This document shows, one piece after another, positions 28,659-46,360 of a stretch of 64,000 nt of DNA; position 1 is the first letter of the stretch, and every line of letters starts with the position of its first letter. A program made the position numbers and the translations under genes. Source of the stretch: Alphaproteobacteria bacterium (lineage in GTDB: Bacteria > Pseudomonadota > Alphaproteobacteria > SP197); NCBI GenBank assembly GCA_965213815.1, contig OZ243917.1, positions 3,609,150 to 3,673,149 on the forward strand. The letters run 5' to 3'. The notes under the pieces are model-generated. The model had not been told where the DNA came from. It worked only from the letters and a program-made list of their open reading frames with translations, and did not search any database.

Positions 28659-29825
28659 TCAGCGATAGGGATCGGCGGCGTCGCGCAATCCGTCGCCGAG
28701 GAAATTGAAGGCGAGAACGACAATGATGACGGGAACGACAGGGAGCATGAGCCAGGGGTAGAGCGCCACGATGTTGATGTTCTGGGCCTCGTTCAGGAGA
28801 ACACCCCAGCTCGTGATCGGCGGCCTCAGGCCCAGCCCCAGGAAGGAGAGCGCGGTCTCGCCCAGGATCATGCCCGGAATGGACAGGGTTGCCGAGGCAA
28901 TGAGGTGGCTGGTGAAGCCGGGAAGCAGGTGACGGAAGATGACCCGTGACGGCTTCGCGCCCATGAGCACGGCGGCGGTAGCAAAATCCTCTTCGCGCAG
29001 GGCCAGAAGCTTCGAGCGCACAGCCCGCGCCAGACCGGTCCAGTCGAAGAGGCCGAGAATGATGGTGATGCCGAAGTAGACCAGGACCGGACTCCAGGTG
29101 ATCGGCAGGGACGCCGACAGCGCCATCCACAGGGGAAGTTCCGGAAAGCTGCGAATGATCTCGATCGTGCGCTGGACAAGACTGTCGACCCAGCCGCCGT
29201 AATATCCCGAGAGTCCCCCGAGGACGATCCCTAGGAGGAAGCTGATGACGATGCCGATGAGGCCCACCGTGAGCGATATCCGCGCGCCCATGAGGATTCT
29301 CGACAGGAGATCACGTCCCAGCCTGTCGGTCCCCAGGAGGAAGAGCGTGCCGTCCTCGGCCGGACAGACGACATGGAAGCGCATCTCGACCATGCCCCAG
29401 AACGTGTAGGAATCACCCAGACAGAAGAATCGCAGGCGCTCGACCTTTTCGGAATTCGGGGTGTAGACACGCTGCAGGTTGGTCATGTCGAGGTGGTAGT
29501 CGTAGCCGTAGACGAAGGGTCCGATGAACTGACCCTCGTGAAACAGCCGCACCATCTGCGGTGGCGCGTAGATGTGATCGGTGTCGCGCGTGTGGAGATT
29601 GTAGGGGGCGAGAATCTCCGATATGGCGATGGAAAAGAACGTGACCAGAAGGATGGTGCCGGAGATGACGGCCAGGCGGTGGCGGCGGAACTTCCACCAC
29701 ATCAGCGTCCACTGGTTGGCGAGATAGAAGCGCTCAAGTTCCGGCGTCAGCCTGTCGACATCATGGGGGTCCCAGGGCCCGGTATCGGTCCAGTGCTCCA
29801 TCTGGCCTGGTGGTGCGTCACGCAT
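28659..29825 (-). CDS. Opp/Dpp-type ABC permease (OppC-like)
   Basis: LGTDRLGRDLLSR, ETALSFLGLG, FNFLGDGLRDAADP; start re-set. Confidence 0.9.
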   Translation of the reverse strand: MRDAPPGQMEHWTDTGPWDPHDVDRLTPELERFYLANQWTLMWWKFRRHRLAVISGTILLVTFFSIAISEILAPYNLHTRDTDHIYAPPQMVRLFHEGQFIGPFVYGYDYHLDMTNLQRVYTPNSEKVERLRFFCLGDSYTFWGMVEMRFHVVCPAEDGTLFLLGTDRLGRDLLSRILMGARISLTVGLIGIVISFLLGIVLGGLSGYYGGWVDSLVQRTIEIIRSFPELPLWMALSASLPITWSPVLVYFGITIILGLFDWTGLARAVRSKLLALREEDFATAAVLMGAKPSRVIFRHLLPGFTSHLIASATLSIPGMILGETALSFLGLGLRPPITSWGVLLNEAQNINIVALYPWLMLPVVPVIIVVLAFNFLGDGLRDAADPYR

Positions 29826-30823
29826 CACCGGCTCCCGCTGCCGCCCAGGCGGATGCGTGGATCGAGCAGCGCCAGCAGCAGATCGGAGACCAGCACCCCG
29901 AGGACGGTGAGCAGGGCCAGGCACATCAGGAACGAGCCAGCGAGATACATGTCCTGGGTCTGCAGGGCGCGCAGCAGGATCGGTCCGGTGGTGGGGAGCG
30001 ACAGCACCACCGACACGATCACCGCGCCGGAGATGACCTGGGGAAGCAGATTGCCGATATCGGCGATGAACGGATTGAGGGCCATGCGCAGCGGATAGCG
30101 CACGAGCACTCTCACCGGATGCAGGCCCTTCGCCTTCGCCGTGACGACGTATTGTCTGTGGAGTTCGTCCAGCAGATTGGCGCGCAGGCGGCGGATCATG
30201 CCCGCCGTGCCGGACGTGCCGATCACCACCACCGGAATCCACAGGTGTTCCAGAATCGAGAGGAGTTTTCCCCAGGTCCAGGGCTGATCGATGTACACGG
30301 GATCCATGAGGCCGCCAATCGACGTCCCGAACCACACATTCCCGAGAAACAGCAGCACCAGGGCGAGAAGGAAGTTGGGCGTGGCCAGGCCCAGAAAGCC
30401 GAGAAAGGTGAGTCCGTGATCACCCCAGGAATACTGGTGGGTTGCCGAGTAGACACCGATGGAAAAGGCGACGACCCAGGTGAAGATGATGGTCGCGCCC
30501 GAGACAATGATGGTGAGCCACAGGCTTTCGCCTATGACCTCGGCCACCGGCTTGTTGTATTCGAAGCTGATTCCCATATCGCCCTGGACAAGGTCGGCGA
30601 CCCAGATCACGTATTGCTGCCACATGGGCCGGTCGAGGCCGAATTCCTGGCGGTAGATGCCGATCTGCTCCATGCAGCCCGATTCACCCTGGGCCTCGCA
30701 TTCGGCAATCATGGTCGACAGGAAGTCGCCCGGCGGAAGCTGGATGATGATGAACGTGATGAGGCTGATGCCGATCAGTGTCGGCACCATGATGATGAGC
30801 CGGTGGACGGTGAAGGCGATCAT
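29825..30823 (-). CDS. Opp/Dpp-type ABC permease (OppB-like)
   Basis: MIAFTVHRL, PPGD, YVVTAKAKGL, LLDPRIR; start re-set to 30823. Confidence 0.9.
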   Translation of the reverse strand: MIAFTVHRLIIMVPTLIGISLITFIIIQLPPGDFLSTMIAECEAQGESGCMEQIGIYRQEFGLDRPMWQQYVIWVADLVQGDMGISFEYNKPVAEVIGESLWLTIIVSGATIIFTWVVAFSIGVYSATHQYSWGDHGLTFLGFLGLATPNFLLALVLLFLGNVWFGTSIGGLMDPVYIDQPWTWGKLLSILEHLWIPVVVIGTSGTAGMIRRLRANLLDELHRQYVVTAKAKGLHPVRVLVRYPLRMALNPFIADIGNLLPQVISGAVIVSVVLSLPTTGPILLRALQTQDMYLAGSFLMCLALLTVLGVLVSDLLLALLDPRIRLGGSGSR

Positions 30824-32706
30824 GGCCGGCCGTCGTCGCCATCGACGAAGAAGAACGTGTCGGGCTGCCACACCCCGAGCTGGGCTCCGGGATCCCAGTT
30901 GTAGATGGCTTCTTCCGGCACATTCCTCATCCGGTTCGAGACCGCAAGGGGCTGGAGAATGCCGGCTACAAGGCCGATGGAATAGACGCCGTCGCAATAG
31001 AGCTCCAGCATCTCTTCCCAGATGACCCGGCGCTCGTCAGCCGTCCGGCTGTCGCGCCAGGCGAGGTAGAGATCCATGAGGCGACGGGGCGTTTCCATGT
31101 CAATGGGCTCTCCGGCGGCGCCACCGGTCTCGTGGTACTGACCCCACCGCGGCCACATCAGCAGCTGCTGGGTGGTGGGGGCGAACTCGCCGGGGCTCAT
31201 GTCGGCCGCAGGTACGCCGTTCTCGTTGCCGAACCACATGGCCATCACCGTCTGTCCGGCGAATATTCGGTTGCGCAGGACCTCGCGCTGCAGGGGCTTG
31301 GGGTAGAGCTTGATTCCGGCCGTGGCCCAGGAATCGTGGATCAGTTCGAGTATGTCGGTCTCTTCGGGGTTCTCACCGGCGGTCTCGACAATGACTTCCA
31401 GGGGTCTGCCGTCGGGAAGCAGGCGTATGCCGTCATCGATGACAAGTCCCATGTCGTCGAGCAGCCGGTTGGCCTCCTCAGGATCGAACCGGGCCCAGGC
31501 ATCGCGGAATTCGGCGCGGTAGAGGGGCGATGCCGGAAGAACGGTGTTCTGCCCTTCAAGGCCGAGACCGAAGTAGATGACCTGGTTGATCTCCCGGCGA
31601 TTGATGGCCAGCGAAAGGGCCTGCCTGAAGCGGCGGTCGCGCAACACCGTGCGCCAAACCGGATCGGCCACGTTGAGATTGGGGTAGAGGGCAAGCTGGC
31701 TTCCTCTGGCCGTCTGCCACAGACGCACCTGGTAGTCGTTGTGTTCCTCCCCTTCCTTGAGAAAGGTGTAGTCGTTGAAGGCCAGTCCCCGCACCTGAAG
31801 GTCGGCTTCCCCCGCCCACGTCTTGAGCGGGATGAGCTTGCTGTCGACAACGGTCATGACGACGCGGTCGATGTAGGGGAGTTGCCGGCCCAGGGCGTCC
31901 ACCTTGTGATAGAAGGGATTGCGCTCGGCGATGAACCGCTGGGCCGGCGCCTCGTTGGTGATGATCCATGGCTGCAGCGTGGGAAGATCGGGATTGTCAA
32001 AGCGATAGAGATTGTCGAGGGCGTTGTGGAGCGATGCCCAGCCGGGCTTGCCGGCCTCGGCGGCCTGACGCGCAATCGCTTCCGCATCGCCATGATCTGC
32101 ATGGAACCGCTTCATGTAGTGGGCAGGGCGATAGATGAAGAGAGGCGCCGCGCCGGCCAGAGCCGGCAGGAAATCGGGGTTGGGCGCGGGCCAAGTGTAG
32201 CGCACGACCATGTCGCTGACGACTTCGAAGAGCGGCAGGGCACCGCCGGCGCGCATGACCGTGGGCGGGCCTGACGGGGAGAGTTCCGGGTTACCCGCGA
32301 CATCCTCCCACCAGTAGCGAAAGTCCTCGGAGGTCAGGGGATGGCCATCCGACCATCGGTGGCCGCGCCGCAACCGGAAGGTGAAGGTGCGCCCGTCCTC
32401 GACGGTGAAGGACTCGAGGAGGTCGGGCACCAGGGCGAAGGTCTCGTCATATCCGACCAGCCGGGCGTAACCGAAGACAGCAAGGATCCGCGTATCCTTG
32501 CTGCGGCTGATCAGCATGTTCCAGTCACCGCCGTAATCGCCGGTGGCCCGGCCATCATCGACGACGAGAGGTTCGTTGGGCAGGCGCTCGTGAAGGGGCG
32601 GCAGATCACCGGCAGCGACCCGTTCCGCGAGCCACGGCATCTCCGCCGCGAGGGCCGGCATGGCAAGAAATGCCACAAGGAGTGCCACGGCGACGCGCCC
32701 GCTCAT
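30820..32706 (-). CDS. family 5 ABC substrate-binding protein
   Basis: Signal peptide, LPPLHERLP, YGG, WSDGHPLTSEDF, RNPFYHKVD; resembles the oligosaccharide-binding subgroup. Confidence 0.88.
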   Translation of the reverse strand: MSGRVAVALLVAFLAMPALAAEMPWLAERVAAGDLPPLHERLPNEPLVVDDGRATGDYGGDWNMLISRSKDTRILAVFGYARLVGYDETFALVPDLLESFTVEDGRTFTFRLRRGHRWSDGHPLTSEDFRYWWEDVAGNPELSPSGPPTVMRAGGALPLFEVVSDMVVRYTWPAPNPDFLPALAGAAPLFIYRPAHYMKRFHADHGDAEAIARQAAEAGKPGWASLHNALDNLYRFDNPDLPTLQPWIITNEAPAQRFIAERNPFYHKVDALGRQLPYIDRVVMTVVDSKLIPLKTWAGEADLQVRGLAFNDYTFLKEGEEHNDYQVRLWQTARGSQLALYPNLNVADPVWRTVLRDRRFRQALSLAINRREINQVIYFGLGLEGQNTVLPASPLYRAEFRDAWARFDPEEANRLLDDMGLVIDDGIRLLPDGRPLEVIVETAGENPEETDILELIHDSWATAGIKLYPKPLQREVLRNRIFAGQTVMAMWFGNENGVPAADMSPGEFAPTTQQLLMWPRWGQYHETGGAAGEPIDMETPRRLMDLYLAWRDSRTADERRVIWEEMLELYCDGVYSIGLVAGILQPLAVSNRMRNVPEEAIYNWDPGAQLGVWQPDTFFFVDGDDGRP

Positions 32707-34571
32707 GACACGACGTCCCCCGGAGCGGCCGTGGCCCGCACCCAGTGATTGTCACCGACCCGCACCGTGTCAAGTCCACCGGTCTCCGTAAAGGGTTCGG
32801 GCCATTCGGACGGGACGGAGGCTCGGCCCTCCATGAGCAGCGACAGATCAAGCCGGCGTTGCGGGTCGGGCTCCGGGACAGCGGCAAGCAGGGCCCTGGT
32901 GTAGGGGTGCACCGGATTGCTGAAGAGTTCCTCGCGGCGGGCCTGCTCGACGAGGCGCCCGGCGCACATGACGGCAATGCGGTCAGCCATGTAGTCGACC
33001 ACGGCGAGATTGTGCGAGATGAAGACGTAGGTGAGACCCAGCTGATGCTGCAGGTCCTTCAGCAGGTTGAGAACCTGCGCCTGGATCGATACGTCGAGAG
33101 CCGAGACCGGTTCATCGCAGATCAGCAGTTCCGGTTCGAGGGCAAGGGCCCGGGCGATGCCGATGCGCTGGCGTTGGCCGCCGGAGAAACTGTGCGGATA
33201 GCGGCGCAAGTGACGGACATCGAGACCCACGACATTGATGAGGTCCTTGACCCTGTCGGCGCGCTCTTCGGCGCTGCCCACTCCGTGAATCAGCAACGGT
33301 TCGACGATGATGTCGAACACGGTCATGCGCGGATTGAGCGATCCGAAGGGATCCTGGAAGATGAACTGCACTTTCCTGCGGTAGGCGAAGAGATCCGTGT
33401 CCTTCAGGGCCACCACATCGCGTGGCACGCTGTCGTCTACGAAGGTGATGGTTCCAGCATCGGGTTCCAGGGCCTTGAGGATCAGCTTGCTCGTCGTGGT
33501 CTTGCCACATCCCGATTCGCCGACCAGACCAAGACACTCGCCACGTCGCACCTCGAAGCTGACATCGTTGACGGCAACATGGGGTGGCCTGGCGCGCAAC
33601 AGCACGCCGGACTTGCGGGTGGTGAAGGTCTTTGTCAGTCCCTCGACCGAAAGCAGTGTTTCACCGGTTCCGCGACGGGCCTCCGCGCGGCCCATGGCGG
33701 CAATATTGCCCGTCGGTATCTCGCGCAACGGAACCAGCCGCTCCCCGGGTTTCAGACCGAAACGTGGCACGGCCGCCAGCAGGCCCTTGAGATAGGGGTG
33801 GCGGGCCCGATGGAAGATGTCATCGAGGGAGCCCCGCTCCATGATCCTGCCGTGGTACATGACGACGATGTCCTCGGCGACGTTGGCGACAACACCGAGA
33901 TCATGGGTGATCATCAGCACGGCCATGGACAGTTCGGCCTTGAGGTCGTTCACCAGTTTGAGGATCTGAGCCTGGATGGTGACATCAAGAGCGGTGGTGG
34001 GTTCATCGGCAATCAGCAAGGCCGGACGGCAGACCAGCGCCATGGCGATCATGGCGCGCTGGCGCAGGCCGCCGGAGAGTTCGAATGGATAGCTGTCGAA
34101 GGCGGCGCGGGCATCCGGAAACCCGGCGAGACGCAGCATGTCGACGGAAAGTTCACGGCCTTCGGCCCTTGAACAGCGGCGGTGGAGGTGGAGAGCCTCG
34201 CTGACCTGATCGCCCACCGTGTGCAACGGCGACAGGGATGTCATGGGTTCCTGGAAGATCACCGATATGCGCCCACCCCGGATGGCCCTCATCGCCCGGC
34301 CGTTCTCCTCGAGAGAGACGATGTCGACCGGCGTTTCCTCGCGATTGCGCGGATCGTTGAACAGGATGCGGCCCGACGTAATCTCGGCTGTGCGCGGCAG
34401 AATGCGCATGATCGCCTGGGAAATCACGGTCTTGCCCGAGCCCGATTCGCCCACCAGTGCGAGGGTGCGCGCCGGCCACATGGTCAGCGACGCTCCCTTG
34501 ACAGCCTCGACGGCGCCATCGCCGATGCGAAAGCGGATGTGGAGATCCCTGACATCGACGAGGGGAGTCAT
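32703..34571 (-). CDS. fused double-NBD ABC ATPase (OppDF-like)
   Basis: [16 protein letters not shown] and [16 protein letters not shown]. Confidence 0.92.
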
Positions 34572-35101
34572 GACGAAGCCTCCCCCGGATCTTCCGAGGG
34601 GTGGGTGAATCCCATGGCGGCCAGGTTGGCAAGCGTGACCGGATTCAGCGTCAATCCGCGTTTCCGGGCGATCCGGGCAGCCTCGCCGACGATATCGTCG
34701 AATCCTTCAAGGGAGGAGTCGACCCTGATGGCCCGGCGCCCCTCGCGAAGGGTGAGTTCCATCCACCCCCCCGGGGAGCGTGCGATGATCTTCCGCCTCG
34801 GGCGGGTCTGGAAGTAGGCGAGATTGATGGCTGTCAGTCCCTTCCAGGAGACCGTGACGCCCAGCGGCCCGGTGGCTCTCACCCCTTCCCGAGAGAGTTC
34901 ATAGTGCGTCAGGTGGCGCAGCAGGGTTCTCAGGCCAAAGGCCACGAACAGCGTGCCCACAGCCACCAGAATCCACGCCAGCACGGCAGCCACATCCACG
35001 AGCACCGGCGGCGCGAGACACGCCACCGCACCGAACGCCGCGCGTGCGTAGTCGGCTGCGATGCTCCGGGTGTCATAGCGCAGGACCCCGGGCGTCTTCA
35101 T
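34568..35101 (-). CDS. hypothetical 2-TM membrane protein with a PH-like cytoplasmic domain
   Basis: Two TM helices; 4-bp overlaps with both neighbours. Confidence 0.65.
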   Translation of the reverse strand: MKTPGVLRYDTRSIAADYARAAFGAVACLAPPVLVDVAAVLAWILVAVGTLFVAFGLRTLLRHLTHYELSREGVRATGPLGVTVSWKGLTAINLAYFQTRPRRKIIARSPGGWMELTLREGRRAIRVDSSLEGFDDIVGEAARIARKRGLTLNPVTLANLAAMGFTHPSEDPGEASS

Positions 35102-35874
35102 GGATCCTCTCGCCCTGTGACGCCGAACACCTTGCCGGCAGAAAGCCAGCGGCCTGCCGGGTGCCGCGCAACGGTATGGACGAACCGGTCGATGAAGGCG
35201 TGGCAGGCCGCGTCATGGACGAGGTGGTGGGTCATCAGTCCGGTGGCCTCCGACGGGTCCGCGACACCGCGACGGCGGTTGGCAAGATGTCGCACCGATG
35301 CCTCCAGGCAGACCTCCTCGCCGGCAAACCGCCTTCCACCCTTCCAGTCGACGATATCGATGTGAACGTTGTTGACGACCAGACCGCGCCTCCCCGCGGC
35401 GCACCGTGGACCGAGTGTCGAGAGACCAAGAAATCCGCTCCGGGCAAGGATGGAGAGAACCGCGTCGTCGATCCTGTTCCACGGGGGCACCATGACCTCG
35501 ATCAAGGACGACGGGAAGGATGTGCGAAGCACGTGGCGCGACCGTATCAGGGCTTGCCGGAGACCGGAAGGCAGGGCCCCGGCACAGAGTTCCATTCGTC
35601 GTCCCCTGCCCCCGTTGTGATCGACATGGGCAACACCGTGCTGCAACACATGGATGTCTTTGGTTCCGGAGACGAGCGCCGTGACGTCGGGCGTCAACCA
35701 GTCCGGCACGACGGCCATGGCAAGAGGCACTCCAAGACTCTGTCTCAAACGGAGAAGTTCCTTCAGTTTCACGGCATCGGCGCCGGCATCGTCGTCACGC
35801 CACCAGAAGGTCGCCGTCTGCCCCGAGCGCGCCCACGCGTCGAGTTCCCCCGCCAGTGCCGACCAGTCAGCCAT
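35098..35874 (-). CDS. polysaccharide deacetylase-like protein
   Basis: FWWRDDDA, LQHGVAH, VPPWNR, GLMTHH; start re-set to 35874. Confidence 0.78.
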   Translation of the reverse strand: MADWSALAGELDAWARSGQTATFWWRDDDAGADAVKLKELLRLRQSLGVPLAMAVVPDWLTPDVTALVSGTKDIHVLQHGVAHVDHNGGRGRRMELCAGALPSGLRQALIRSRHVLRTSFPSSLIEVMVPPWNRIDDAVLSILARSGFLGLSTLGPRCAAGRRGLVVNNVHIDIVDWKGGRRFAGEEVCLEASVRHLANRRRGVADPSEATGLMTHHLVHDAACHAFIDRFVHTVARHPAGRWLSAGKVFGVTGREDP

Positions 35875-37000
35875 GGCGCAGCCACTCACCGACAAGCCTG
35901 GCACTCTCGCGGGCCCCGTCGAGGTTGATGTCTTCCATGTCCACGGGCTCGAGGTCGAAGGCTTCATCGACAGCCTTCGCCACGCCTCTCGGGGTCAGCG
36001 CCGTATCATCGAGAACCACGGCAAGCCGTCGCCGCTGCAGCTGCCTCGCGCGGTCACTCTGCTCGGTTTCGCCGGCCCCCGACCATGGCGCCACAACGGC
36101 CCGGGCGCCGGCTCCGAGGACTTCCGCCACCGTGTTGTAGCCGCCCTGCGATACCGAGACGGCACAGCGGCCGAGAAGCTCTGTAAAGTCGGACCGGTTG
36201 GATTCGATAACCATCCCCTGATGCTCGCATGGAGCGACGCCGCTGTCGCCGACGAGCAGACGCCATCGTCTGCGGTTCGCCCTTCGCGAGTAGGGAGGCG
36301 CCGCCATGGCTGCCTCGAAGAGCGCTTTTCCGACGGCCCCGCCACCGGCCGACACGATGATTTCCCCGCGTCCGGGACCGCGGTCACTGACGGCCGGCGG
36401 CACCTCGGCAACATAGCCCGTGTAGACAAGCCGGTGACCCAGGGCATCGGCATGGCGGAAGGTTTCCCCGAACGGCACGAAACTCTCGGATCCGTGCACC
36501 ATCACGTGATGGCAGTGCTGCAGCGCCAGATCGCGCATCGCGTCGTGGCGGCCGGACCTGGCGGGCCTTTGGAGAATGTCGCGTACCGAACTGACCACCA
36601 CCGTGTCGGGGCGAACGCGACGGGAGGCAGCGATCAGCGCCAGCACTTCCGGCGTGAACTGGCGCCGGCCAAACGGCCAGGTCTCGATCACCACAAGTCG
36701 CGCTTCAAGGCGGCCGACCAGGTCTTCGAGACGTCGGCGGCGATCATCGAGGCAGGCCGCATCCGCCGGCCGCCCGGCGTTGTCCACCAGCGACGAGAAT
36801 CCCACATCACTGGCGCGCAGCGCAGGCAGCTGGACGAGACGGGCCTTTCCCGTATCGAGAGTTGCCACAGGCATGCCTCCCGATGCGATCACCGATGTCG
36901 TGCCGTTTCCGGCCAGCGCCGATGCGATGCGCGCCACCCGCTTGAGATGGCCGCTTCCCAGAAGATGCTGAACCCAGAAGAGAACGGGTCCGTTCATCAT
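35867..37000 (-). CDS. GT-B glycosyltransferase (GT28 C-terminal-like)
   Basis: VQHLLGSGH, SAGGGAVG, SQGGYNT. Confidence 0.85.
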   Translation of the reverse strand: MMNGPVLFWVQHLLGSGHLKRVARIASALAGNGTTSVIASGGMPVATLDTGKARLVQLPALRASDVGFSSLVDNAGRPADAACLDDRRRRLEDLVGRLEARLVVIETWPFGRRQFTPEVLALIAASRRVRPDTVVVSSVRDILQRPARSGRHDAMRDLALQHCHHVMVHGSESFVPFGETFRHADALGHRLVYTGYVAEVPPAVSDRGPGRGEIIVSAGGGAVGKALFEAAMAAPPYSRRANRRRWRLLVGDSGVAPCEHQGMVIESNRSDFTELLGRCAVSVSQGGYNTVAEVLGAGARAVVAPWSGAGETEQSDRARQLQRRRLAVVLDDTALTPRGVAKAVDEAFDLEPVDMEDINLDGARESARLVGEWLRHG

Positions 37001-37587
37001 GCCCCTCCCAGCTCGATGACAAGGGGATCGTCGGGAGACAGTGTCGCGTTCTCGCCCACAGTCAGCATCAGCAGTCCATATCGCGGCATCCTGACCGGCG
37101 GTGCGCCGGTGAAATCCCAGCCGGTGGTCGCCGAGAGAGCAGCGCGCATGACGCCGCGGTGTGTCACGGCGAGCGTGTCGCGGCCATCGGCCGCAAGGTC
37201 GCGGACAAGTTCGAGGAAACGGCAGCGGACCTCCCGGGGGCTTTCGCCATCAGGGGGGCGAAAGTCGAGACCCGCTGCCTCGTTGGTGGCCATGGCCGAA
37301 GGATCGGCATGGCGCAGACTGTCGAGTGTCTTGCCCTCCCAGTGCCCCCAGTCCATTTCGCGCAGCCGCGGGTCGACTGCCGGATCCCGCAAACCTGCCA
37401 GAGCAGCCGTTTCCAGCGCTCTCAGCAGGGGACTCGAGAGCCGCCGCCAGCCGTAGAGGCGATCGGGCAACCGCCAGGCCCTGGCCGCGGCCCTGCCTGC
37501 CCTCGAGAGGTGGGTGTCGCTCAGACCCTGGAGTCGGCCCGCCGCGTTCCACGTGGTTGGCGCATGTCTCAGGAGGGCGAGTTTCAC
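36997..37587 (-). CDS. histidine phosphatase family protein
   Basis: LRHAPTTWN, SSPLLRA, LREMDWG, VTHRG. Confidence 0.88.
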   Translation of the reverse strand: MKLALLRHAPTTWNAAGRLQGLSDTHLSRAGRAAARAWRLPDRLYGWRRLSSPLLRALETAALAGLRDPAVDPRLREMDWGHWEGKTLDSLRHADPSAMATNEAAGLDFRPPDGESPREVRCRFLELVRDLAADGRDTLAVTHRGVMRAALSATTGWDFTGAPPVRMPRYGLLMLTVGENATLSPDDPLVIELGGA

Positions 37588-38687: not shown

Positions 38688-39916
38688 GCCACCCCGTTCG
38701 ATGCGAAGAGAGTGAGAAGCCTGTCAATACCGCTCTCCATGGAAAATTCGGCTCTCACGCGGTCTTCCCCGTGGCGTCCCATGCGATCACGAAGTCCGGG
38801 ATTGCGGACAAGGTGGCACAGCCCGGAGGCCAGCGCCGGAGCATCGCCCGGGGCAACCAGGCAGCCGTTGTCACCGTCGCTCACCAGTTCACCGACCGCC
38901 GAAACATCTGTGGTAACCACCGCCAGGGCCTGGCTCTGCGCCTCGAGGAGAACGTTGGGAAGTCCGTCACGGTCCCCGTCACGGGCAATGACGGGTGCCA
39001 GGACGAAGAGGTCGGCATTCTGGAGAATGTCCAGGATCTCGTCCTGACGTCTGGCGCCCAGCCACGTGATTCGCCGGTCCAGTCCCGATCGGCCCGCCGT
39101 GTCGATGAGGGCCGGGAGCAGCGGTCCATCGCCAACATGGGTGAGGTGCCAGTGGAGATCGTCAGGCAGCAGGGCCAGTGCGGCAAGAAGCGTGTCGTAC
39201 CCCTTCTTTTCGACGGCCCGCCCCACCGTGACAAGGCGCACGGGATCATCGGGATTACCGCCGTCACGGTGAGACGGGGAACGAACCGGTGATGGCCAAC
39301 GCGCCTGATCGATTCCGTGATAGACGAGAAAGACGCGTCGTTGCGGGACCAGCGCCTCGAGCCAGTCACGGTTCGTTGCAGTACAGGTCACAAGCCAGCA
39401 GCATCCGGATATCTTGTCCGCCAGATCACGACGGGGTGTGGTGTAGATATCCCTCGCGTGAGCCGACGCCGACCATGGCAGTCCGGTCATCATCGCCGCA
39501 TAGCGGGTCACCGATGCCGGGGTGTGAAGAAAATGGGCATGAAGATGGTTCACGGCGGGTGCGATCTCCGTGGCGACCACGCAGGCCTGGCCAAAGCGCC
39601 GCACCCTGTTGCGGGTCGGGTCCCGCCAGAGATCGGCAAGCCAGTGTCGCCTCGCGCAGGCATATCCGGGGAGTTTCCGGGCCCGCCGCCAGGCCCACCA
39701 GGTTCGCGCCGGTTCCTCGTGAAGATACTCCGGAAGCCAGGTAACCGGCGCCCGCACGGCATCGTGAATCGCGTGGCGGTCCGTCGTTGTCGGATGGCGC
39801 AGGGAGACAATCCGGATGTCGAGCCCGCGCTGCTCGAGGGCCAGGATCTCCTGGGCGATGAAGGTCTCCGAGAGTCGGGGCCAACCCTTGACCACGATGG
39901 CAATGGTGCCGGTCAC
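38678..39916 (-). CDS. glycosyltransferase family 4 (WcaL-like)
   Basis: KGWPRLSETFI, HAHFLH, GRAVEKKG, DGLPNVLLEA. Confidence 0.88.
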   Translation of the reverse strand: MTGTIAIVVKGWPRLSETFIAQEILALEQRGLDIRIVSLRHPTTTDRHAIHDAVRAPVTWLPEYLHEEPARTWWAWRRARKLPGYACARRHWLADLWRDPTRNRVRRFGQACVVATEIAPAVNHLHAHFLHTPASVTRYAAMMTGLPWSASAHARDIYTTPRRDLADKISGCCWLVTCTATNRDWLEALVPQRRVFLVYHGIDQARWPSPVRSPSHRDGGNPDDPVRLVTVGRAVEKKGYDTLLAALALLPDDLHWHLTHVGDGPLLPALIDTAGRSGLDRRITWLGARRQDEILDILQNADLFVLAPVIARDGDRDGLPNVLLEAQSQALAVVTTDVSAVGELVSDGDNGCLVAPGDAPALASGLCHLVRNPGLRDRMGRHGEDRVRAEFSMESGIDRLLTLFASNGVACE

Positions 39917-40007
39917 GCGTCAGTGGCACCCGGCAGGATCGCCGGTATCAGGCGCAACCCTGGCGCAGTAGTCTGTCCGGGATACCGGACATCTGGACCG
40001 TTCCGTC

Positions 40008-41222
40008 ATGAACAGCAGTTCCCCCTCGTCGCCCGGGACCATTCCCGGACGGCGCGCCATGATACGCAATCTCGTCCTGCTGTTCGCCGGCAATGCCGTG
40101 CTGGGTGCCCAGATGCCCATGCTCATCATCATGGGGGGGCTTGCCGGGGCCTACGTGGCGCCGGTGCCAAGTCTCGCCACCTTTACCATCTCCCTGCAAA
40201 TGCTGAGCGCCATGGTCACGGCCACCCCTGTGTCCCTGCTCATGGGACGTTTCGGACGCCGCGCCGGGTTTCTTGGCGGCGCTGCATGCGCCATGGCGGG
40301 AGGCTGGCTGGGCGCGGTGGCGCTCTTCGAAAGGGACTTCATCTACCTGTGCCTCGCTCACGTGTGCTTTGGCGCCATGCAGAGCAGCCTGTGGTTCTTC
40401 CGTTTCGCCGCCGCCGATGCCGTCCACGGTCCCTGGAAACCCCGGGCCATCGCCATCATCACCGGTTCGGGGCTGATCGCCGCGCTGCTCGGCCCGGAAA
40501 TCCTGATCCATACCCGGGATCACTTTTTCCCCGTGCCCTTTGCCGGCGCCTATGCGGTCATCGTGGTCATCTGCCTTGTCGGGTGTCTTCCGGTGGCCTT
40601 TCTCGATCTTGCGAAACCGCCGCCGCGTTCACGGACGACAGCCCAGCCACTGGGCCGGATTCTTGGCAGCCCGCCGGTGCTGACCGCCATTGTCTGCGCC
40701 GGCGCCGCCCATGCGATGATGGTGTTCGTGATGACGCCCACCGCCATCGCGATGGCCGATTGCGGGCTGTCGACCGATCAATCCGCCGACGTGGTGCGCT
40801 GGCACGTCGTCGCCATGTTTGGCCCGAGCTTCTTCACCGGATCGCTGATCGCACGCTGGGGATCGCGGCGCGTCATCGCCATCGGTCTTGCCCTGCTGGC
40901 GGCGGCCGCCCTGGTCGCGTGGTCGGGTGTTGCTCTGGAGAACTTCTATCTTGCCCTTGTCCTGCTCGGGGTCGGCTGGAACTTCGGCTTCATCGGGTCA
41001 ACAAGCCTGCTCGCCGAACATGTCCGGCCCGAGGATCAGTCGAGGGTCCAGGGACTCAACGAGACGTTCATCGCACTCGGGGCCACCGTGGCGTCCTTTG
41101 CCTCGGGCGCGCTGACCGTAACCCTGGGCTGGTCGACGTTCATCCTCACCTCGATACCTCTCTTTCTCATTCCGGCGCTTTGGCTCGCGCGCAGCGCGTT
41201 CGCGCACCGCCATGCCGGCTGA
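40008..41222 (+). CDS. MFS transporter, antisense within the glycosyltransferase locus
   Basis: MGRFGRRAGF, FRFAAAD, WHVVAMFGPSFFTG; 12-TM pattern. Confidence 0.85.
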   Translation: MNSSSPSSPGTIPGRRAMIRNLVLLFAGNAVLGAQMPMLIIMGGLAGAYVAPVPSLATFTISLQMLSAMVTATPVSLLMGRFGRRAGFLGGAACAMAGGWLGAVALFERDFIYLCLAHVCFGAMQSSLWFFRFAAADAVHGPWKPRAIAIITGSGLIAALLGPEILIHTRDHFFPVPFAGAYAVIVVICLVGCLPVAFLDLAKPPPRSRTTAQPLGRILGSPPVLTAIVCAGAAHAMMVFVMTPTAIAMADCGLSTDQSADVVRWHVVAMFGPSFFTGSLIARWGSRRVIAIGLALLAAAALVAWSGVALENFYLALVLLGVGWNFGFIGSTSLLAEHVRPEDQSRVQGLNETFIALGATVASFASGALTVTLGWSTFILTSIPLFLIPALWLARSAFAHRHAG

Positions 41223-41225
41223 TGC

Positions 41226-42455
41226 TCATCCCTGCCGGCGCAGGGCGTGGTGCCGGCGCGGGCTCGAGCGGTCCCGGGCGAGATGCATTCTGACCAGCCG
41301 ATTGACATTCTCCAGGCCATCGAGGAGCCCCGGAACCACAACCTGGCCCGGGCGGCGCTGTTGCGGGAGCTGGCGAATCGCCGTCGCCATCGCATCGGCC
41401 CGGGCCGCAGCTTCTTCGGTCAGCATGGAGACAAGACCGAGCTCGCGGGCGCGGCTGGCCCGGATGATCTGCTCGCGGCGCGGCTCCTGTCTTGGAACGA
41501 TGAGCGCCGGCTTGTCGAATGACAGGATCTCGCAGAACGTGTTGTAGCCCCCCATCGCCACCACTCCCGCCGCCCGCGCCATCAACGACTCGAGGTGGGT
41601 TTCGAAGGTGATGGCCGATACCCGTTCAAGACGGTCGATACGGGCCTGGAACTCGGCCTTGACCTCGGGCTGCATGAATGGTCCGAACACGACGAGGGCC
41701 GGCAGTTCGGGCGCCATGGCGCATTCATAGGCCGCCAGCACCCGGTCGACCAGGACGTCACCATCGCCTCCGCCACCCGTGGTCACGAGCACGAAGGGCT
41801 CTTCAATGGCATCGGGCAGGACCGCCTCCGGACCCAGCACGGGCACCGTGCGCTTGAGATACCCGGTGTAGATCACCTTGCGGCGCACCGAGTCCGGCAC
41901 GTCGATCTCGGCAAGAGGATCATGAATCTGGGGCAGGCCATAGACCCAGATCTCGTCGTAGAGATCGCTCAGGGCCGGCACGGCATTCTTGCGTTCCCAC
42001 TCCGGCTTGAGGAGCTCGGGGTCGTCCATGACGTCACGCAGGCCAAGGACGATCCTGGTGCCGCGCTCCTTGAGCATGTCGATCGTCTCGCGGACCTCAC
42101 CTCGCAACCCGAGTGGCTCCTTGTCGACGAGAAAGATGTCGGGATCGAAGATCTCGGCGGTGTGTCGCATGATGGAAGCGCGCAATGCCATGGTCTGCTC
42201 GATGCCGAGCATCGGATTGAGCGGTGAGTACTCCCCGTTGCGCAGCTTGATGACACCGGGAACCCGCACGAAGTCCACCCGGGCACGGAAGTCGAAGCTG
42301 CCGATGATGGGAAGGCCCGAGAGAATGAGGACAGTCAGGTTGTCGACGGCCCCCACCATGGCATGGGCAATGGCCCGGCACCGGCGCAGATGCCCCAGGC
42401 CAAAACTGTCATGACTGTAGATCAGGATGCGTGGACGCCCTGGCACCTTGCTCAT
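41226..42455 (-). CDS. GT-B glycosyltransferase
   Basis: YSHDSFGLGHLRR, TTGGGGDG, MGGYNTFCE; start re-set to 42455. Confidence 0.87.
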   Translation of the reverse strand: MSKVPGRPRILIYSHDSFGLGHLRRCRAIAHAMVGAVDNLTVLILSGLPIIGSFDFRARVDFVRVPGVIKLRNGEYSPLNPMLGIEQTMALRASIMRHTAEIFDPDIFLVDKEPLGLRGEVRETIDMLKERGTRIVLGLRDVMDDPELLKPEWERKNAVPALSDLYDEIWVYGLPQIHDPLAEIDVPDSVRRKVIYTGYLKRTVPVLGPEAVLPDAIEEPFVLVTTGGGGDGDVLVDRVLAAYECAMAPELPALVVFGPFMQPEVKAEFQARIDRLERVSAITFETHLESLMARAAGVVAMGGYNTFCEILSFDKPALIVPRQEPRREQIIRASRARELGLVSMLTEEAAARADAMATAIRQLPQQRRPGQVVVPGLLDGLENVNRLVRMHLARDRSSPRRHHALRRQG

Positions 42456-42586
42456 GACACACCCGTCTGTTTCCAAAAAAACGGCGCGCATTCTGCCACA
42501 GTCACCGTGCCGGCGTCACCGGACGAGTGTCCGGACATGCGCAGAGCCTTGATCCGTTGCCATGTGAACCTAGTATCGCCGGGACC

Positions 42587-45265
42587 ATGGACTCCACCAT
42601 CTACAAATTCATCTTCCGGTATTCGCGCAAGGAGCAGGTGTTCATCCTGCTCTTCACGCTGCTGTCCCTGCCGTTCTATTACGCCTCCCTCGACATTCCC
42701 AAGCTCATCGTCAACAACGTGCTGGCGGACCCGGAGTCCATCGCTCCCGGTTCGGCCGACATGCGCACCCTCGTCATTCTCGGCATCCCTCTGGGCGAGA
42801 TGGAGCGCATCGGTCTGCTGGCCCTCTACTGCGGTCTCTTCCTGGTCCTTGTGCTCGCCAATGGCGGCTTCAAGTACGTCATCAATGTCTACAAGGGCCT
42901 TCTCGGGGAGCGCATGCTGCGGCGGCTGCGCTACCAGCTCTACAGCCGGATCCTGCGCTTTCCCTCGCCTCATTTCCGACGCGTGAGCTCCGGCGAACTG
43001 ATCCCCATGGTGACCCAGGAGGTCGAGCCTCTCGGCGGCTTCATCGGCGATGCCCTTGCTCTTCCCATGTACCAGGGTGGCCTCCTGATCACGGCCCTCT
43101 TCTTCATTTTCATGCAGGATCCCCTGATGGGCCTTGCCTCGGTGGCACTCTACCCCATGCAGGGCTGGATCATTCCGAAACTCCAGCGCCGGGTGAATCT
43201 CCTTGGCAAGGCGCGCGTCCAGGAAGTGCGCAAGGTCTCGGAGCGCATCTCGGAAACCGTTCAGGGCGTTGAGGAGTTGCACGCCAACGGCATGGCACGC
43301 TGGGAGGCGGCCGAGTTCACCGCACGCATGGGACGGATCTTCGACATCCGCTACCAGATCTACCGCAAGAAGTTCTTCATCAAGTTTCTCAACAACTTTC
43401 TGGCGCAGATCACGCCTTTCTTCTTCTACGCCATCGGCGGCTGGTTCGTGATTGATGGCTCCCTCACCCTTGGCGGCCTGGTGGCCGTCCTTGCCGCATA
43501 CAAGGATCTGCCGCCGCCCTGGAAGGAACTGCTCAATCACTACCAGATTCGCGAGGATGCCAGGATCAAGTACGACCAGGTCGTCACCCAGTTTGCACCG
43601 GCCGGCATGAGAAGCGATGCCGTCGTCTTCGGCGATCGCGAGGTCACGCCGTTCACCGGGAGTCTGGCGGCAACCGGTGTGAAGTACGTCGAGGACGACG
43701 ACATCCTCATCGATGGTTTCAACCTCGATGTTCCGCTCGATCGCCACGTCGCCGTCACGGGCGATGCGGTGAGCGGCCGGGACAGGATCGCGCCATTGAT
43801 GGCCCGCCTCGTCGACGCCCGCCAGGGCCGACTGGCTTACGGCACCGAGGACGCCGGTGATCTTCCCGAGGCGGTCCTGGGACGGCGGATCGGCTATGTC
43901 GGCCCCTCGACGTCACTGTTTTCCGCGTCGCTTCTCGACAACCTGCTCTACGGGCTGCGCCAGACTCCGCAAACGCCCCGGCGTGTCCCGCAGGCGATGG
44001 AGGGGGCAGTCTCACGTCAGGCGCGGGAACGCCAGTTGACCGCCAACAGTCCCGACGACATCGAGGATGACTGGGTGAACCTCAACCTGGCGGGCGTGGA
44101 CACGAGATCCGGACTGATCGATGCGGTGCGCCACGCCCTGGCCGTCGCCGATTTCGAGGATGATGTCTACCGCATGGGATTGAGGCGCCAGCTTGATCCC
44201 GCACAGCGGCCCCGGGAGGCGGAACGACTCCTCGAGGCACGGCGCATTCTCGAGGAGCGCCTGGCATCCGAGGCATTCTCAGGCCTGGTCGAACCCTTTG
44301 ACCGCGATACCTACAACAGCAATGCGACGGTCGGCGAGAATCTGCTCTTCGGCACCCCTGTCGGCGACACCTTCGATCTGGATCGCCTGCCGGAAAACGA
44401 CCACATCATGTCTCTGCTCGCCGGAGCCGGATTGACGGAGGAATTCCTGGCCATAGGCTGCGAGGTGGCCCGGACCATGGTCGAGCTCTTTGCCGATCTG
44501 CCGGCGGATCACGAGTTCTTTCTCCAGTTCTCCTTCATCTCACCGGACGATCTTGGCGAGTACCGCACACTGCTCGCAAGGGTGCAGCGCAGCGGAGAGC
44601 AGAGTCTCGACGACGAGGAACGCCAGCGATTCCTGGCACTGCCCTTCCGTCTTGCCCCGGCACGTCATCGTCTCGGCCTGATCGACGACACCATGCAGGC
44701 CCGGCTGCTCGAGGTGCGCCACGCCTTTGCCGAAGGCCTGCCCGACGACCTCGCCGGCAACATCGCGTTCTTCGACCGGGCAGAATACAATTCCGCGCTG
44801 TCACTCCAGGACAACATCCTCTTTGGCAAGATCGCCTGGGGCATGGCCGGGTCCCAGCAGAAGGTGGGGCGCCTCATGGCGGATGTCATCCGCGACCTTG
44901 ATCTGCGCCCGCTGGTGATTGAACTCGGACTGGAGACCGGGGTCGGCATCGGCGGCGCCCGACTGACACCGGCGCAGCGGCAGAAGACGGCCATCGCCCG
45001 GGCCGTCCTCAAGCATCCGGCCATCATGGTGCTGTCGGAAGCGACAGCCATGTTCGACGGAGCATCCCAGACTGCGGTCATGGACAATCTTCGCAAGGAG
45101 TTTCGCGGCAGGGCCCTGATCTGGGTGGTACACAGGCCAGGCGACGCGGCCCGCTTCGACCAGGTCCTTGTCATGAAGGACGGGAAACTTGCCGAGAAGG
45201 GAACCTTCGCGGAGCTCATGGACCGCGACAATTCGGTTCTCGCCAGCCTGATAGCACGTGAATGA
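42587..45265 (+). CDS. ABC exporter-like protein (TMD plus split, degenerate NBD with a large insertion)
   Basis: 6-TM ABC membrane domain; Walker A region GDAVSGRD, signature region LTPAQRQK, Walker B region MVLSEAT. Confidence 0.82.
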   Translation: MDSTIYKFIFRYSRKEQVFILLFTLLSLPFYYASLDIPKLIVNNVLADPESIAPGSADMRTLVILGIPLGEMERIGLLALYCGLFLVLVLANGGFKYVINVYKGLLGERMLRRLRYQLYSRILRFPSPHFRRVSSGELIPMVTQEVEPLGGFIGDALALPMYQGGLLITALFFIFMQDPLMGLASVALYPMQGWIIPKLQRRVNLLGKARVQEVRKVSERISETVQGVEELHANGMARWEAAEFTARMGRIFDIRYQIYRKKFFIKFLNNFLAQITPFFFYAIGGWFVIDGSLTLGGLVAVLAAYKDLPPPWKELLNHYQIREDARIKYDQVVTQFAPAGMRSDAVVFGDREVTPFTGSLAATGVKYVEDDDILIDGFNLDVPLDRHVAVTGDAVSGRDRIAPLMARLVDARQGRLAYGTEDAGDLPEAVLGRRIGYVGPSTSLFSASLLDNLLYGLRQTPQTPRRVPQAMEGAVSRQARERQLTANSPDDIEDDWVNLNLAGVDTRSGLIDAVRHALAVADFEDDVYRMGLRRQLDPAQRPREAERLLEARRILEERLASEAFSGLVEPFDRDTYNSNATVGENLLFGTPVGDTFDLDRLPENDHIMSLLAGAGLTEEFLAIGCEVARTMVELFADLPADHEFFLQFSFISPDDLGEYRTLLARVQRSGEQSLDDEERQRFLALPFRLAPARHRLGLIDDTMQARLLEVRHAFAEGLPDDLAGNIAFFDRAEYNSALSLQDNILFGKIAWGMAGSQQKVGRLMADVIRDLDLRPLVIELGLETGVGIGGARLTPAQRQKTAIARAVLKHPAIMVLSEATAMFDGASQTAVMDNLRKEFRGRALIWVVHRPGDAARFDQVLVMKDGKLAEKGTFAELMDRDNSVLASLIARE

Positions 45266-45283
45266 CATGGGGGGCCCCGGCTC

Positions 45284-45733
45284 ATGAGTCTGCAGGAAGA
45301 AGTCGACCTGTTGCGCACCATCCCGCTGTTTTCGAGGATCGAGCCGAGCCGCCTCAAGCTCCTTGCCTTCACGGCCCAGCGCCTGACGTTCGCCCCGGGG
45401 GACCTGCTGTGCCGCCAGGGTGACGAGGGTGATGCCGCCTACATCATCATCACCGGTGACGCCGATGTCCTCGTCGAATCGGACTCCGGCGCCGTCAAGG
45501 TGGCGGCGCTGGGGCCCAACGATCTCCTGGGAGAGAATGCGATCCTGTGCGACGTGCCGCGCACGGCGACGGTGAAGGCGGTGACGAAGGTGGAGACACT
45601 GATGATCTCCAAGGAACTCTTCTTCCAGCTGGTCAACCAGTTCCCGTCGATCTCGATCGAGATCATGCGCGAACTCGCACGTCGGGTGGAAAAAACGACG
45701 ACGATGCTGCGCGACGCCATGGCGGCCCGCTGA
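45284..45733 (+). CDS. stand-alone cyclic-nucleotide-binding domain protein
   Basis: QGDEGDAAYII, LGENAIL..PRTATV phosphate-binding cassette; no HTH. Confidence 0.9.
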   Translation: MSLQEEVDLLRTIPLFSRIEPSRLKLLAFTAQRLTFAPGDLLCRQGDEGDAAYIIITGDADVLVESDSGAVKVAALGPNDLLGENAILCDVPRTATVKAVTKVETLMISKELFFQLVNQFPSISIEIMRELARRVEKTTTMLRDAMAAR

Positions 45734-45736
45734 AAC

Positions 45737-46240
45737 GTGAGCCGGCTCGACAGCGCCATCCGCCGCTTGGAGGCCCAGCGTTTGTGCCTTGACGAGGCCG
45801 CCGTCCTTGTCGCCGACCGGCCCGGCCACATCCTTGAAATCGGGCTCGGCAACGGCCGCACCTACGACCATCTGCGCTGTCTCTTTCCGCAAAGGGACAT
45901 CTACTGTTTCGACCGCCGGATCGCCGCCCATCCCGACTGCATCCCCGATGACGGCCACATGTTTCTGGGCGATCTTGCAGAGACACTCCCTCGTGCCGCA
46001 CACCGTCTCGGACCGGCGGCCATCCTTGCCCACGCCGATATCGGCTCAGGAGATCATCAGGCGAGCCTCGCCCTCGCCATCCGGCTCGCCGAAATCCTGC
46101 CGCCCCTTCTCGCTCGCGGCGCCGTCATCATCGGCGATCAGCCCCTCCCCAACACCGCCTGGAACACTCTCGGTCTCCCTGCAGGTGTCGCTGCCGGCCG
46201 CTACCACATGTACCGGAAAGCTCCCCCCGCAAGCTCATGA
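45737..46240 (+). CDS. small SAM-dependent methyltransferase-like protein
   Basis: MSRLDSAIRRL, LEIGLGNGRTYDHLR, HADIG. Confidence 0.78.
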   Translation: MSRLDSAIRRLEAQRLCLDEAAVLVADRPGHILEIGLGNGRTYDHLRCLFPQRDIYCFDRRIAAHPDCIPDDGHMFLGDLAETLPRAAHRLGPAAILAHADIGSGDHQASLALAIRLAEILPPLLARGAVIIGDQPLPNTAWNTLGLPAGVAAGRYHMYRKAPPASS

Positions 46241-46331: not shown

Positions 46332-46360
46332 ATATGACCGGTCAGGAATACTGGTCATAT
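46332..46360 (+). promoter_or_regulatory. probable TA autorepression operator
   Basis: Inverted repeat ATATGACCGG-N9-CTGGTCATAT (9/10 match) abutting the antitoxin ATG. Confidence 0.6.

Follow-up and report, generated by a model that had tools for sequence, protein, structure and literature searches.

A compact alphaproteobacterial gene cluster for putative glycan synthesis, export and import, related to the rhizobial PPP and opt-red loci

Gene content and layout of the locus

We analysed a 64,000-nucleotide stretch of an alphaproteobacterial genome (GTDB lineage SP197; contig OZ243917.1, positions 3,609,150 to 3,673,149; hereafter the window), in which positions 28659-46240 hold a divergent cluster of genes for glycosyltransferases (GTs), an ATP-binding cassette (ABC) exporter-like protein, a cyclic nucleotide monophosphate (cNMP)-binding protein and an ABC importer. 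By sequence comparison, the cluster is orthologous to the Sinorhizobium meliloti genes for a product provisionally named PPP, phazolicin-protecting polysaccharide (Travin et al., mBio 2023, PMC10128002), and to the opt-red cluster of Rhizobium. We consider it reasonably probable, with room for doubt, that the locus represents, in compact and nearly complete form, a system conserved among alphaproteobacteria in which a glycan made in the cytoplasm is exported under cNMP control, and with which an importer has been co-inherited.

Genes were placed by a six-frame listing of open reading frames (ORFs), third-position GC, and Pfam and NCBIfam scans, and all 13 genes described in a first-pass annotation, made from the letters alone, were found where it had put them. 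Ten minus-strand genes run in series from GT4b to permC. The first six comprise GT4b (38678-39916; Glycos_transf_1), a GT4 enzyme and the redB orthologue; GT4a, a second GT4 enzyme (37584-38687; Glyco_trans_1_4 and Glycos_transf_1); a branch 1 histidine phosphatase (36997-37587; His_Phos_1, E=2.4e-37); the second COG4671/redA-like copy of a GT-B glycosyltransferase (35867-37000; Glyco_tran_28_C, E=1.6e-7); a cytoplasmic deacetylase-like enzyme of 259 amino acids with a predicted CE4/NodB fold (35098-35874); and a membrane protein of 177 amino acids with two transmembrane (TM) segments, recognised as hydrophobic stretches, and a C-terminal soluble domain (34568-35101). The remaining four encode the importer, namely a fused, GsiA/YejF-like double ATPase (32703-34571; two ABC_tran and oligo_HPY), a family-5 periplasmic solute-binding protein (SBP) of 628 amino acids with an N-terminal signal-like sequence (30820-32706; SBP_bac_5, E=8e-54), and the permeases permB, of the OppB/DppB type (29825-30823; BPD_transp_1 and BPD_transp_1_N), and permC, of the OppC/DppC type (28659-29825; BPD_transp_1 and OppC_N).

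All nine junctions in this series overlap by 1-10 nucleotides: the permC start overlaps the permB stop by 1 nucleotide, permB and the SBP gene share an ATGA overlap, and GT4a and the histidine phosphatase gene share a GTGA overlap. The fourth GT, a GT-B enzyme of the COG4671 type and the redA orthologue (41226-42455, minus strand; Glyco_tran_28_C), is separated from the other three by a plus-strand major facilitator superfamily (MFS) transporter gene (40008-41222; MFS_1, E=2e-21), so the left arm is not a single operon here. The coupling by overlapping codons that the first-pass annotation had ascribed to most of the left arm holds from GT4b to permC; the MFS gene had been overlooked.

The right arm lies on the plus strand and comprises the ABC exporter-like protein, of the type I/IV fold (42587-45265; ABC_membrane and a split ABC_tran match), a stand-alone cNMP-binding domain protein of 149 amino acids (45284-45733; cNMP_binding, E=6e-20, and no other domain) and a small S-adenosylmethionine (SAM)-dependent methyltransferase (45737-46240; Methyltransf_17, Pfam E=2.6e-48). 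In an alignment of the divergent intergenic region (42456-42586) from nine relatives, the starts of the ABC gene (42587) and of the fourth GT gene (42455) are conserved, a likewise conserved TTGATC...TAGTAT element upstream of the ABC gene may be its promoter, and no conserved CRP-like palindrome was seen. An Rfam scan of 27000-47500 found zero families. Among the Pfam and NCBIfam hits of 15 ORFs there was no Wzx, Wzy, Wzm/Wzt, KpsMT, polyprenyl-phosphate priming transferase or nucleotide-sugar family, in agreement with the earlier statement that Wzx/Wzy/Wzm and nucleotide-sugar genes are lacking. The locus is therefore not a standard polysaccharide locus.

Directly after the Methyltransf_17 gene lies an ORF of 219 amino acids with a PIN domain at residues 91-211 (46334-46993, plus strand), and in Rhizobium phaseoli a RelE/ParE toxin-antitoxin pair lies just past the cNMP-binding gene. 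In both genomes, this end of the cluster may thus be marked by a gene of toxin-antitoxin type.

Conservation across Alphaproteobacteria

Two sets of loci (given L numbers) were fetched, both as 20-kb stretches, one centred on 20 hits to the deacetylase-like protein and the other on the ABC gene of 20 further families; a gene was counted as present at E<=1e-8 and coverage >=50%, and core genes absent from a stretch may, as happens in S. meliloti, sit at another place in the genome. The full set of 13 core genes is found together in 17/20 deacetylase-centred loci, the three incomplete ones being cut by the locus edge (L026), rearranged (L029) or cut by a contig end (L038). The ABC-centred loci hold 13/13 core genes in 6 cases, 12/13 in 6 more and fewer in 8. 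The gene for the 2-TM protein is present in 20/20 deacetylase-centred and 11/20 ABC-centred loci, and the Methyltransf_17 gene in 14/20 and 8/20, respectively. The MFS gene occurs in 6/20 deacetylase-centred loci, from the closest relatives, and in 0/20 ABC-centred loci, and is therefore best taken as a recent, lineage-specific insertion.

Of 61 related genomes, 38 gave a match to the deacetylase-like protein (31/32 genomes of its own family, and 6 of 28 other families). When the insert region of the ABC protein (described below) was used as the query in a class sample of 301 genomes, 97 genomes matched, and the redA-type GT gave 101 matches in the same sample; both were present in 95 genomes, whereas 2 genomes had just the ABC insert, 6 just the GT and 198 had neither, counts that carry no probability because related genomes are not independent. 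A phylum sample, also of 301 genomes, yielded 25 matches to the ABC insert, all from the same class. Taken together, neighbourhood and co-occurrence show that both arms form one conserved unit, as the first-pass annotation had supposed in treating the genes as a functional whole. Insertions of ~3.5 kb were also seen in two of the loci, between the second redA-like GT and phosphatase genes in L028 (8873-12373) and between the ABC and redA-type GT genes in L026 (2191-5654).

A detached segment of the system

The limits set by the first-pass annotation proved too narrow, as the system extends to window positions 1481-4496, where three plus-strand genes encode a metallo-beta-lactamase (MBL)-fold hydrolase (1481-2311; Lactamase_B_2, E=5e-20), a Methyltransf_24 methyltransferase (2308-3144; Pfam E=3e-12) and a 6-TM class III adenylate/guanylate cyclase (3015-4496, with an uncertain start between 3015 and ~3170; Guanylate_cyc, E=2.6e-13, and six hydrophobic segments). 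Full-length cyclase orthologues with 42-50% identity directly adjoin permC in 9/40 fetched loci (L038, L044, L045, L046, L048, L052, L053, L056 and L060), a count to be read knowing that the majority of the loci in the first set of 20 stop within ~600 bp of permC, too short to reveal a cyclase. Other cyclases sit beside the cluster in three rhizobial plasmid records and in L058, and beside the importer in S. meliloti and in R. phaseoli. Orthologues of the Methyltransf_24 protein (45-62% identity) lie beside the cluster in seven loci (L037, L046, L047, L048, L052, L054 and L056). The MBL hydrolase is 41% identical over 263 residues to the product of an S. meliloti MBL gene that lies beside the GT4a-deacetylase pair, and its orthologue adjoins the cluster in L047. 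By these neighbourhoods, the cyclase, the methyltransferase and the hydrolase are detached parts of the same system, newly recognised here.

Between the end of the cyclase gene and permC (window 4500-28650) lie ~24 kb of unrelated genes, including those for a fatty-acid desaturase, an AAA_21 ATPase, a sulfatase, MFS transporters, TauD/PhyH/2OG oxygenases (dioxygenases), SBPs, a DUF899 protein and a C45-type acyltransferase. Since the cyclase adjoins permC in nine other loci, these 24 kb would have been inserted in this genome, and the segment looks like an insertion or rearrangement specific to the lineage. Its AbiEii-like AAA_21 ATPase ORF (8805-9842, plus strand; E=1e-29) may be a defence-type gene. 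Two copies of cluster genes in other genomes may be broken: the ABC insert region at G311:C1:636035-636936 lies in two pieces with a TGA inside one, and the Methyltransf_24 orthologue at L048 554-1373 aligns as two pieces in different frames.

Rhizobial counterparts

In tblastn searches of plasmid records, the ABC protein was matched on S. meliloti pSymB, where SMb21252-SMb21271 contain orthologues of 11 window genes at coordinates that agree between the Tn-seq supplement and the tblastn hits. Identities to the importer are 60% for the fused ATPase, 49% for the SBP and 64% and 66% for the permeases (permC 66%). Those to the GTs are 51% for the redA-type enzyme (SMb21264), 51% for GT4b (SMb21265), 40% for the second redA-like enzyme (SMb21266 region) and 40% for GT4a (SMb21252), and the ABC protein, the cNMP-binding protein and the deacetylase are 37% (SMb21269), 51% (SMb21270) and 33% (SMb21253) identical, respectively. 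The GT4a-deacetylase pair lies ~7 kb upstream of the rest, with annotated coordinates that overlap by 4 nucleotides. The histidine phosphatase, the 2-TM protein and Methyltransf_17 were not matched in the S. meliloti stretches fetched.

On R. phaseoli pRphaBra5c the order is cyclase, ATPase, SBP, two permeases, three GTs, ABC protein and cNMP-binding protein, with 37-66% identity to the window proteins. This cluster is without GT4a, the phosphatase, the deacetylase and the 2-TM protein within the 27 kb fetched, and a Methyltransf_17 orthologue (41% identical) lies at its far end. The genes for redA, redB, the second redA-like GT and the four Opt importer components keep the same order in S. 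meliloti and R. phaseoli, at 40-66% identity and at least 95% coverage, and the ABC gene followed by the stand-alone cNMP-binding gene is likewise found in both. In Rhizobium etli, Vos et al. reportedly described in 2007 (in Environ Microbiol) an opt operon consisting of an Opt transporter, two redA and one redB; its mutants are said to have fixed less nitrogen, grown worse on oligopeptides and tolerated osmotic stress less well, with a changed sensitivity to antibiotics. Such a growth defect on oligopeptides, if it holds, would count against the first-pass reading, for which binding of ordinary peptides by the SBP was a refuting condition.

Phenotypes of the S. meliloti genes come from a phazolicin Tn-seq screen, whose supplement annotates SMb21264 as redA and SMb21265 as redB (PMC10128002). 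There, insertions in SMb21252, 21253, 21264, 21265, 21266 and 21269, which encode GTs, the deacetylase and the ABC protein, had a common phenotype with log2 changes of -3.5 to -5.4, and strong depletion under phazolicin was also listed for insertions in SMb21256, 21259 and 21271 (PMC10128002). The authors propose that the genes serve the synthesis of a surface polysaccharide with a barrier role (PMC10128002). Seven of the nine PPP genes are reported to be up-regulated under Myxococcus attack (PMC10315480). In insertion sequencing of R. leguminosarum, the putative orthologue pRL110047, a 'permease of ABC exporter', and pRL110056, a UDP-GlcNAc 6-dehydrogenase, were listed as needed in nodules (10.1101/2020.05.07.082560). 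Our searches with redA/redB and the SMb tags found no literature beyond PMC10128002 and PMC10315480; a paper on the Clr/cAMP regulon (PMC5498481) was dropped as a match, as it concerns a different pSymB cluster (nodP2-smb21248). The earlier claim that no characterised product is known holds, but the system is not a new one: its orthologues already figure in print as S. meliloti PPP (PMC10128002) and as redA/redB/opt.

The ABC exporter-like protein and its cNMP-binding partner

The AlphaFold2 model of the ABC protein (pLDDT 82.8) has an ABCB-type exporter fold, with Foldseek matches to ABCB1, TM287/288, TmrAB, PCAT1 and Atm1, and its best NCBIfam scores, 185 bits for MsbA and 158 bits for HepA, are both far under the cut-offs. 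A competent ABC exporter has a Walker A motif GxxGxGK[ST], a Walker B motif hhhhD-E, a Gln in the Q-loop and an LSGGQ signature. The window protein instead reads GDAVSGRD, MVLSE, VGP and LTPAQ, in which the canonical catalytic motifs are not found. Among 39 aligned family members, the Walker B Asp is replaced by S, N or A in all 39, a canonical Walker A GK[ST] is present in 4, the Q-loop Gln in 7, and the signature of the family reads LSxAQ. The Walker A Lys is retained in 33/39, with Arg in its place in the window protein.

Between the Q-loop and the signature, the nucleotide-binding domain (NBD) accommodates an insert of ~290 residues, mostly helical, which carries two extra copies of the FDRxxYN...NxLFG element that follows the Q-loop. 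In a self-comparison of the insert, R2 against R3 gave z=7.2, and the pairings of R1 with R2 (z=0.7) and with R3 (z=1.7) fell short of significance; a clean domain triplication was thus rejected, as only a short repeated element in R2/R3 is significant. When the whole model was searched with Foldseek, the insert drew no match of its own. In sequence databases the insert region has more than 3,200 matching proteins, none of the best 120 listed bearing a functional name. The degenerate ATPase site and the ~290-residue insert, as read from the alignments across the family, are newly pointed out here.

The cNMP-binding protein retains the conserved G83-E84...R93-T94-A95 cassette, and no DNA-binding domain was found in it, the CRP model matching over positions 21-136 of 214 only. 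Its gene adjoins the ABC gene in 20/20 loci from other families, and in two of them, L061 (1052 aa) and L058 (1027 aa), a single ORF combines ABC_membrane, ABC_tran and a C-terminal cNMP_binding domain. The prior for binding between the two proteins is high because this natural fusion exists. A complex prediction for the NBD plus insert (residues 340-892) with the sensor gave an ipSAE of 0.58 (runs 0.61, 0.58 and 0.57), against 0.00 for the best control, with at least 91% of contacts common to the runs and a partner pLDDT of at least 82. The ipSAE mark is passed by 58/80 solved complexes and 2/110 mismatches, and a value of 0.60 or under is found for 7 of the 80 solved complexes and for both passing mismatches, so that the prediction hints weakly at an interaction. 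All in all, the cNMP-binding protein quite likely binds the ABC protein. The cyclic-nucleotide link put forward in the first-pass annotation has thus gained ground: with the adjacency, the two fusions and the cyclases beside the cluster, it is stronger than the letters alone could show.

Glycan-building enzymes

The redA-type GT has a mean column identity of 67% across 25 orthologues. The COG4671-type GTs singly matched no solved structure, and a 25-row profile gave one chance hit (E=0.32). No hydrophobic segment was found in three of the four GTs (GT4a, GT4b and GT28a), the phosphatase or the deacetylase, and the fourth, GT28b, has one borderline segment (residues 32-50). For the 2-TM protein there was no Pfam or NCBIfam hit, and an Atlas search gave only hypothetical clusters and a weak bPH_6 lead.

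The deacetylase-like protein was modelled by AlphaFold2 with a pLDDT of 93.5, and its top Foldseek matches are polysaccharide/peptidoglycan deacetylases, namely 3rxz (E=1.5e-7, TM score 0.67), HP0310 and Bc1960. CE4 sites are characterised by a metal triad, formed by an Asp and a His-x3-His motif, together with a catalytic Asp. The columns invariant among 19 orthologues are DDD (29-31), H81, G82, H85, PPWNR (132-136), H173, D175, H218 and H219; by this comparison of columns, D29-D31, H81 and H85 are invariant in 19/19 and may correspond to such a site. Polysacc_deac_1 was not matched in Pfam at E<=10, the sole hit being DUF2334 (E=0.27), and a sequence search of the PDB gave no hit. The enzyme should act in the cytoplasm because neither a signal-like N-terminus nor a hydrophobic segment was seen.

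The best solved matches of GT4a include BshA, sucrose-phosphate synthase, MshA and GlgM, and its gene is adjacent to that of the phosphatase in related loci as well. This translationally coupled pair speaks for a compatible solute or small periplasmic osmoprotective glycoside, made by GT4-phosphatase logic and salvaged by the importer in the manner of the glucosylglycerol and ectoine systems, and a biosynthetic cluster with its own importer fits salvage; the lowered osmotolerance reported for R. etli opt mutants would point the same way. We nevertheless regard this as improbable. The equivalog scores all fall far under the NCBIfam cut-offs (BshA 72/274, MshA 62/463, sucrose-P synthase 40/576 and CobC 94/163 bits), the phosphatase lying below every one of them. 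In addition, four GTs, a deacetylase and methyltransferases exceed the needs of any known route, and the phosphatase is unmatched in the rhizobial stretches fetched, yet the phenotype persists there. The phenotypes given in print concern antibiotic tolerance and nodule life (PMC10128002, 10.1101/2020.05.07.082560). A thiol pathway resembling that of mycothiol or bacillithiol, for which a GT4, a phosphatase, a deacetylase and a Gsi-like importer were considered, was dropped, as the locus has no cysteine ligase.

The importer

The fused ATPase scored 613 bits against the GsiA model, whose cut-off is 1077. Among solved structures, the nearest relatives of the SBP are 5ipw (3e-88), a Thermotoga 'OppA' without a known ligand, SPH1118 (1.8e-65), a pectin-oligosaccharide binder that gave no response to peptide mixtures, and an alpha-galactoside binder (2.4e-27), with DppA reaching only 3e-14. 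These relationships lean towards a sugar as the putative ligand.

Proposed mechanism and its alternatives

In the mechanism that we favour, the four soluble GT-B GTs, the histidine phosphatase and the CE4-fold deacetylase would assemble a glycan or glycoside in the cytoplasm, probably beginning on a phosphorylated acceptor, with an N-acetyl-hexosamine in the product that would later be de-N-acetylated, and one or two small methyltransferases would modify it. The product would then cross the inner membrane through the ABC-exporter-fold protein, as a homodimer, whose activity may be set by the cyclic nucleotide-binding (CNB) domain docked on, or fused to, the NBD. The cyclic nucleotide would be supplied by the dedicated 6-TM cyclase, which in this genome has moved 24 kb away, and the SBP-dependent importer may take up the product, its fragment or a precursor. 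In a more specific form, the ABC-fold protein would be a second-messenger-gated conduit rather than an ATP-driven pump, with the cyclase sensing an envelope signal, the CNB domain gating glycan export and the importer setting the periplasmic level; we hold this form to be rather unlikely. If true, it would amount to a cyclic-nucleotide-controlled envelope-glycan homeostat in about a third of the sampled alphaproteobacterial genomes.

Several results weigh against these proposals. The main one, directed at a loop of synthesis, export and re-import, is the separate phenotype of the importer in two screens: insertions in SMb21260-63 were neutral under phazolicin (PMC10128002), and those in optAD (pRL110053-54), which are putative orthologues, were advantageous in the rhizosphere and root (Wheatley et al., 10.1101/2020.05.07.082560). 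As for re-import, the only evidence is this neutrality, which speaks against a role of the importer in the protective phenotype; the small, re-imported glycoside is a hypothetical product. As for cNMP control, insertions in SMb21270, the cNMP-binding gene, gave +1.1, +1.5 and +3.1, none significant, over 5 sites (PMC10128002); these values are compatible with a negative regulator but show nothing. ATP binding, and perhaps slow hydrolysis, by the ABC protein stays possible because the Walker A Lys is kept in most of the family. The phosphatase and the 2-TM protein are not universal, being unmatched in the S. meliloti and R. phaseoli stretches. Furthermore, among the S. meliloti genes with a phazolicin fitness effect are one for a nucleotide-sugar dehydrogenase and one for a polysaccharide lyase of PF14099, SMb21259 (L041 4090-5070), which lies between the cyclase and the importer; there is a hint that the product in Sinorhizobium is a uronic-acid polymer. 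The window genome gave no PF14099 match. Finally, the rhizobial counterpart is known from mutant phenotypes only, and no product has been isolated in any organism.

In a rival explanation, the GTs and the ABC protein would make a high-molecular-weight envelope polysaccharide, as in the PPP reading, and the Opp-like importer would be an ordinary oligopeptide transporter that happens to share the operon. The surface-barrier interpretation of the PPP authors, who assume an envelope polysaccharide where the first-pass annotation had proposed a small solute (PMC10128002), the dehydrogenase and lyase of the same fitness group, and the neutrality of the importer all point that way, as would the poorer growth on oligopeptides reported for R. 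etli opt mutants. However, the export and priming components listed above are lacking among the Pfam and NCBIfam hits of the locus, the importer genes are joined to the GT operon by overlapping codons in many families, for which chance is hard to invoke, and the closest solved relatives of the SBP with known ligands bind sugars, SPH1118 being unresponsive to peptides. We therefore give this explanation a minor, though real, share of our belief.

A different role for the importer would be to bring in an acceptor, such as a peptide, a muropeptide or a plant oligosaccharide, which the GTs decorate and the ABC protein re-exports. The genes for import, modification and export do stay together, and the Pfam and NCBIfam scans revealed no acceptor-synthesis gene in the locus, but the importer, unlike the GTs and the exporter, is dispensable for the phazolicin phenotype, making this scheme very improbable. 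Cytoplasmic synthesis followed by cNMP-controlled export, with a co-inherited importer, thus remains the reading that we prefer. The observation made in the first-pass annotation is confirmed, and its interpretation is supported in part.

The cluster is widespread in the sampled class, and in rhizobia its orthologues have effects on the tolerance of antibiotics and on life in the nodule (PMC10128002, 10.1101/2020.05.07.082560). The compact form in the window supplies the full parts list (four GTs, phosphatase, deacetylase, methyltransferases, exporter, cNMP sensor, cyclase and importer) and so brings the chemistry within reach. Whether a cyclic nucleotide can run an ABC-fold protein with a decayed ATP site is a further question for which it is a natural test case.

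Comparison with known systems

The nearest system is that of the rhizobia. In S. meliloti, the PPP genes are spread over ~23 kb and interleaved with those for a cyclase, a nucleotide-sugar dehydrogenase, the PF14099 lyase, a DUF3095 protein and an FkbM methyltransferase, whereas the window cluster is compact. In print, the opt-red cluster of Rhizobium has been taken for an operon that encodes an oligopeptide transporter. Compared with the Opp, Dpp and Gsi peptide importers, the window SBP falls under the equivalog cut-offs (at best Opp4A, 75/650 bits; DppA, 47/1005 bits).

On the biosynthetic side, the coupling of the GT4a gene to a phosphatase gene resembles the SPS/SPP, GpgS/GpgP and MshA/MshA2 pairs, although no window score rises above the equivalog cut-off of a known synthase or phosphatase. 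In Nod-factor synthesis (NodC/NodB/NodS/NodIJ), the product of a GT is likewise the substrate of a cytoplasmic CE4 deacetylase, a SAM methyltransferase and an ABC exporter. The likeness to this logic is an analogy only, as the cluster is without a GT2 chitin synthase and an acyltransferase, and its ABC type differs. Against the Wzm/Wzt, KpsMT and Wzx/Wzy pathways, neither an ABC-2 permease with its ATPase, nor a flippase/polymerase, nor a priming transferase was found in the locus scans, and the window exporter is of the ABCB type.

Unlike the Crp/Fnr transcription factors, the 149-residue sensor consists of cNMP_binding only and is without the C-terminal helix-turn-helix. The ABC protein shares with MsbA, NdvA/ChvA, HepA and PglK the fold of six TM helices and an NBD, but its family differs from them by the decayed ATP site, the insert and an obligatory cNMP-binding partner. 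As far as the aligned residues tell, the ABC-sensor pair thus appears to depart from every characterised ABC exporter in the defining catalytic motifs.

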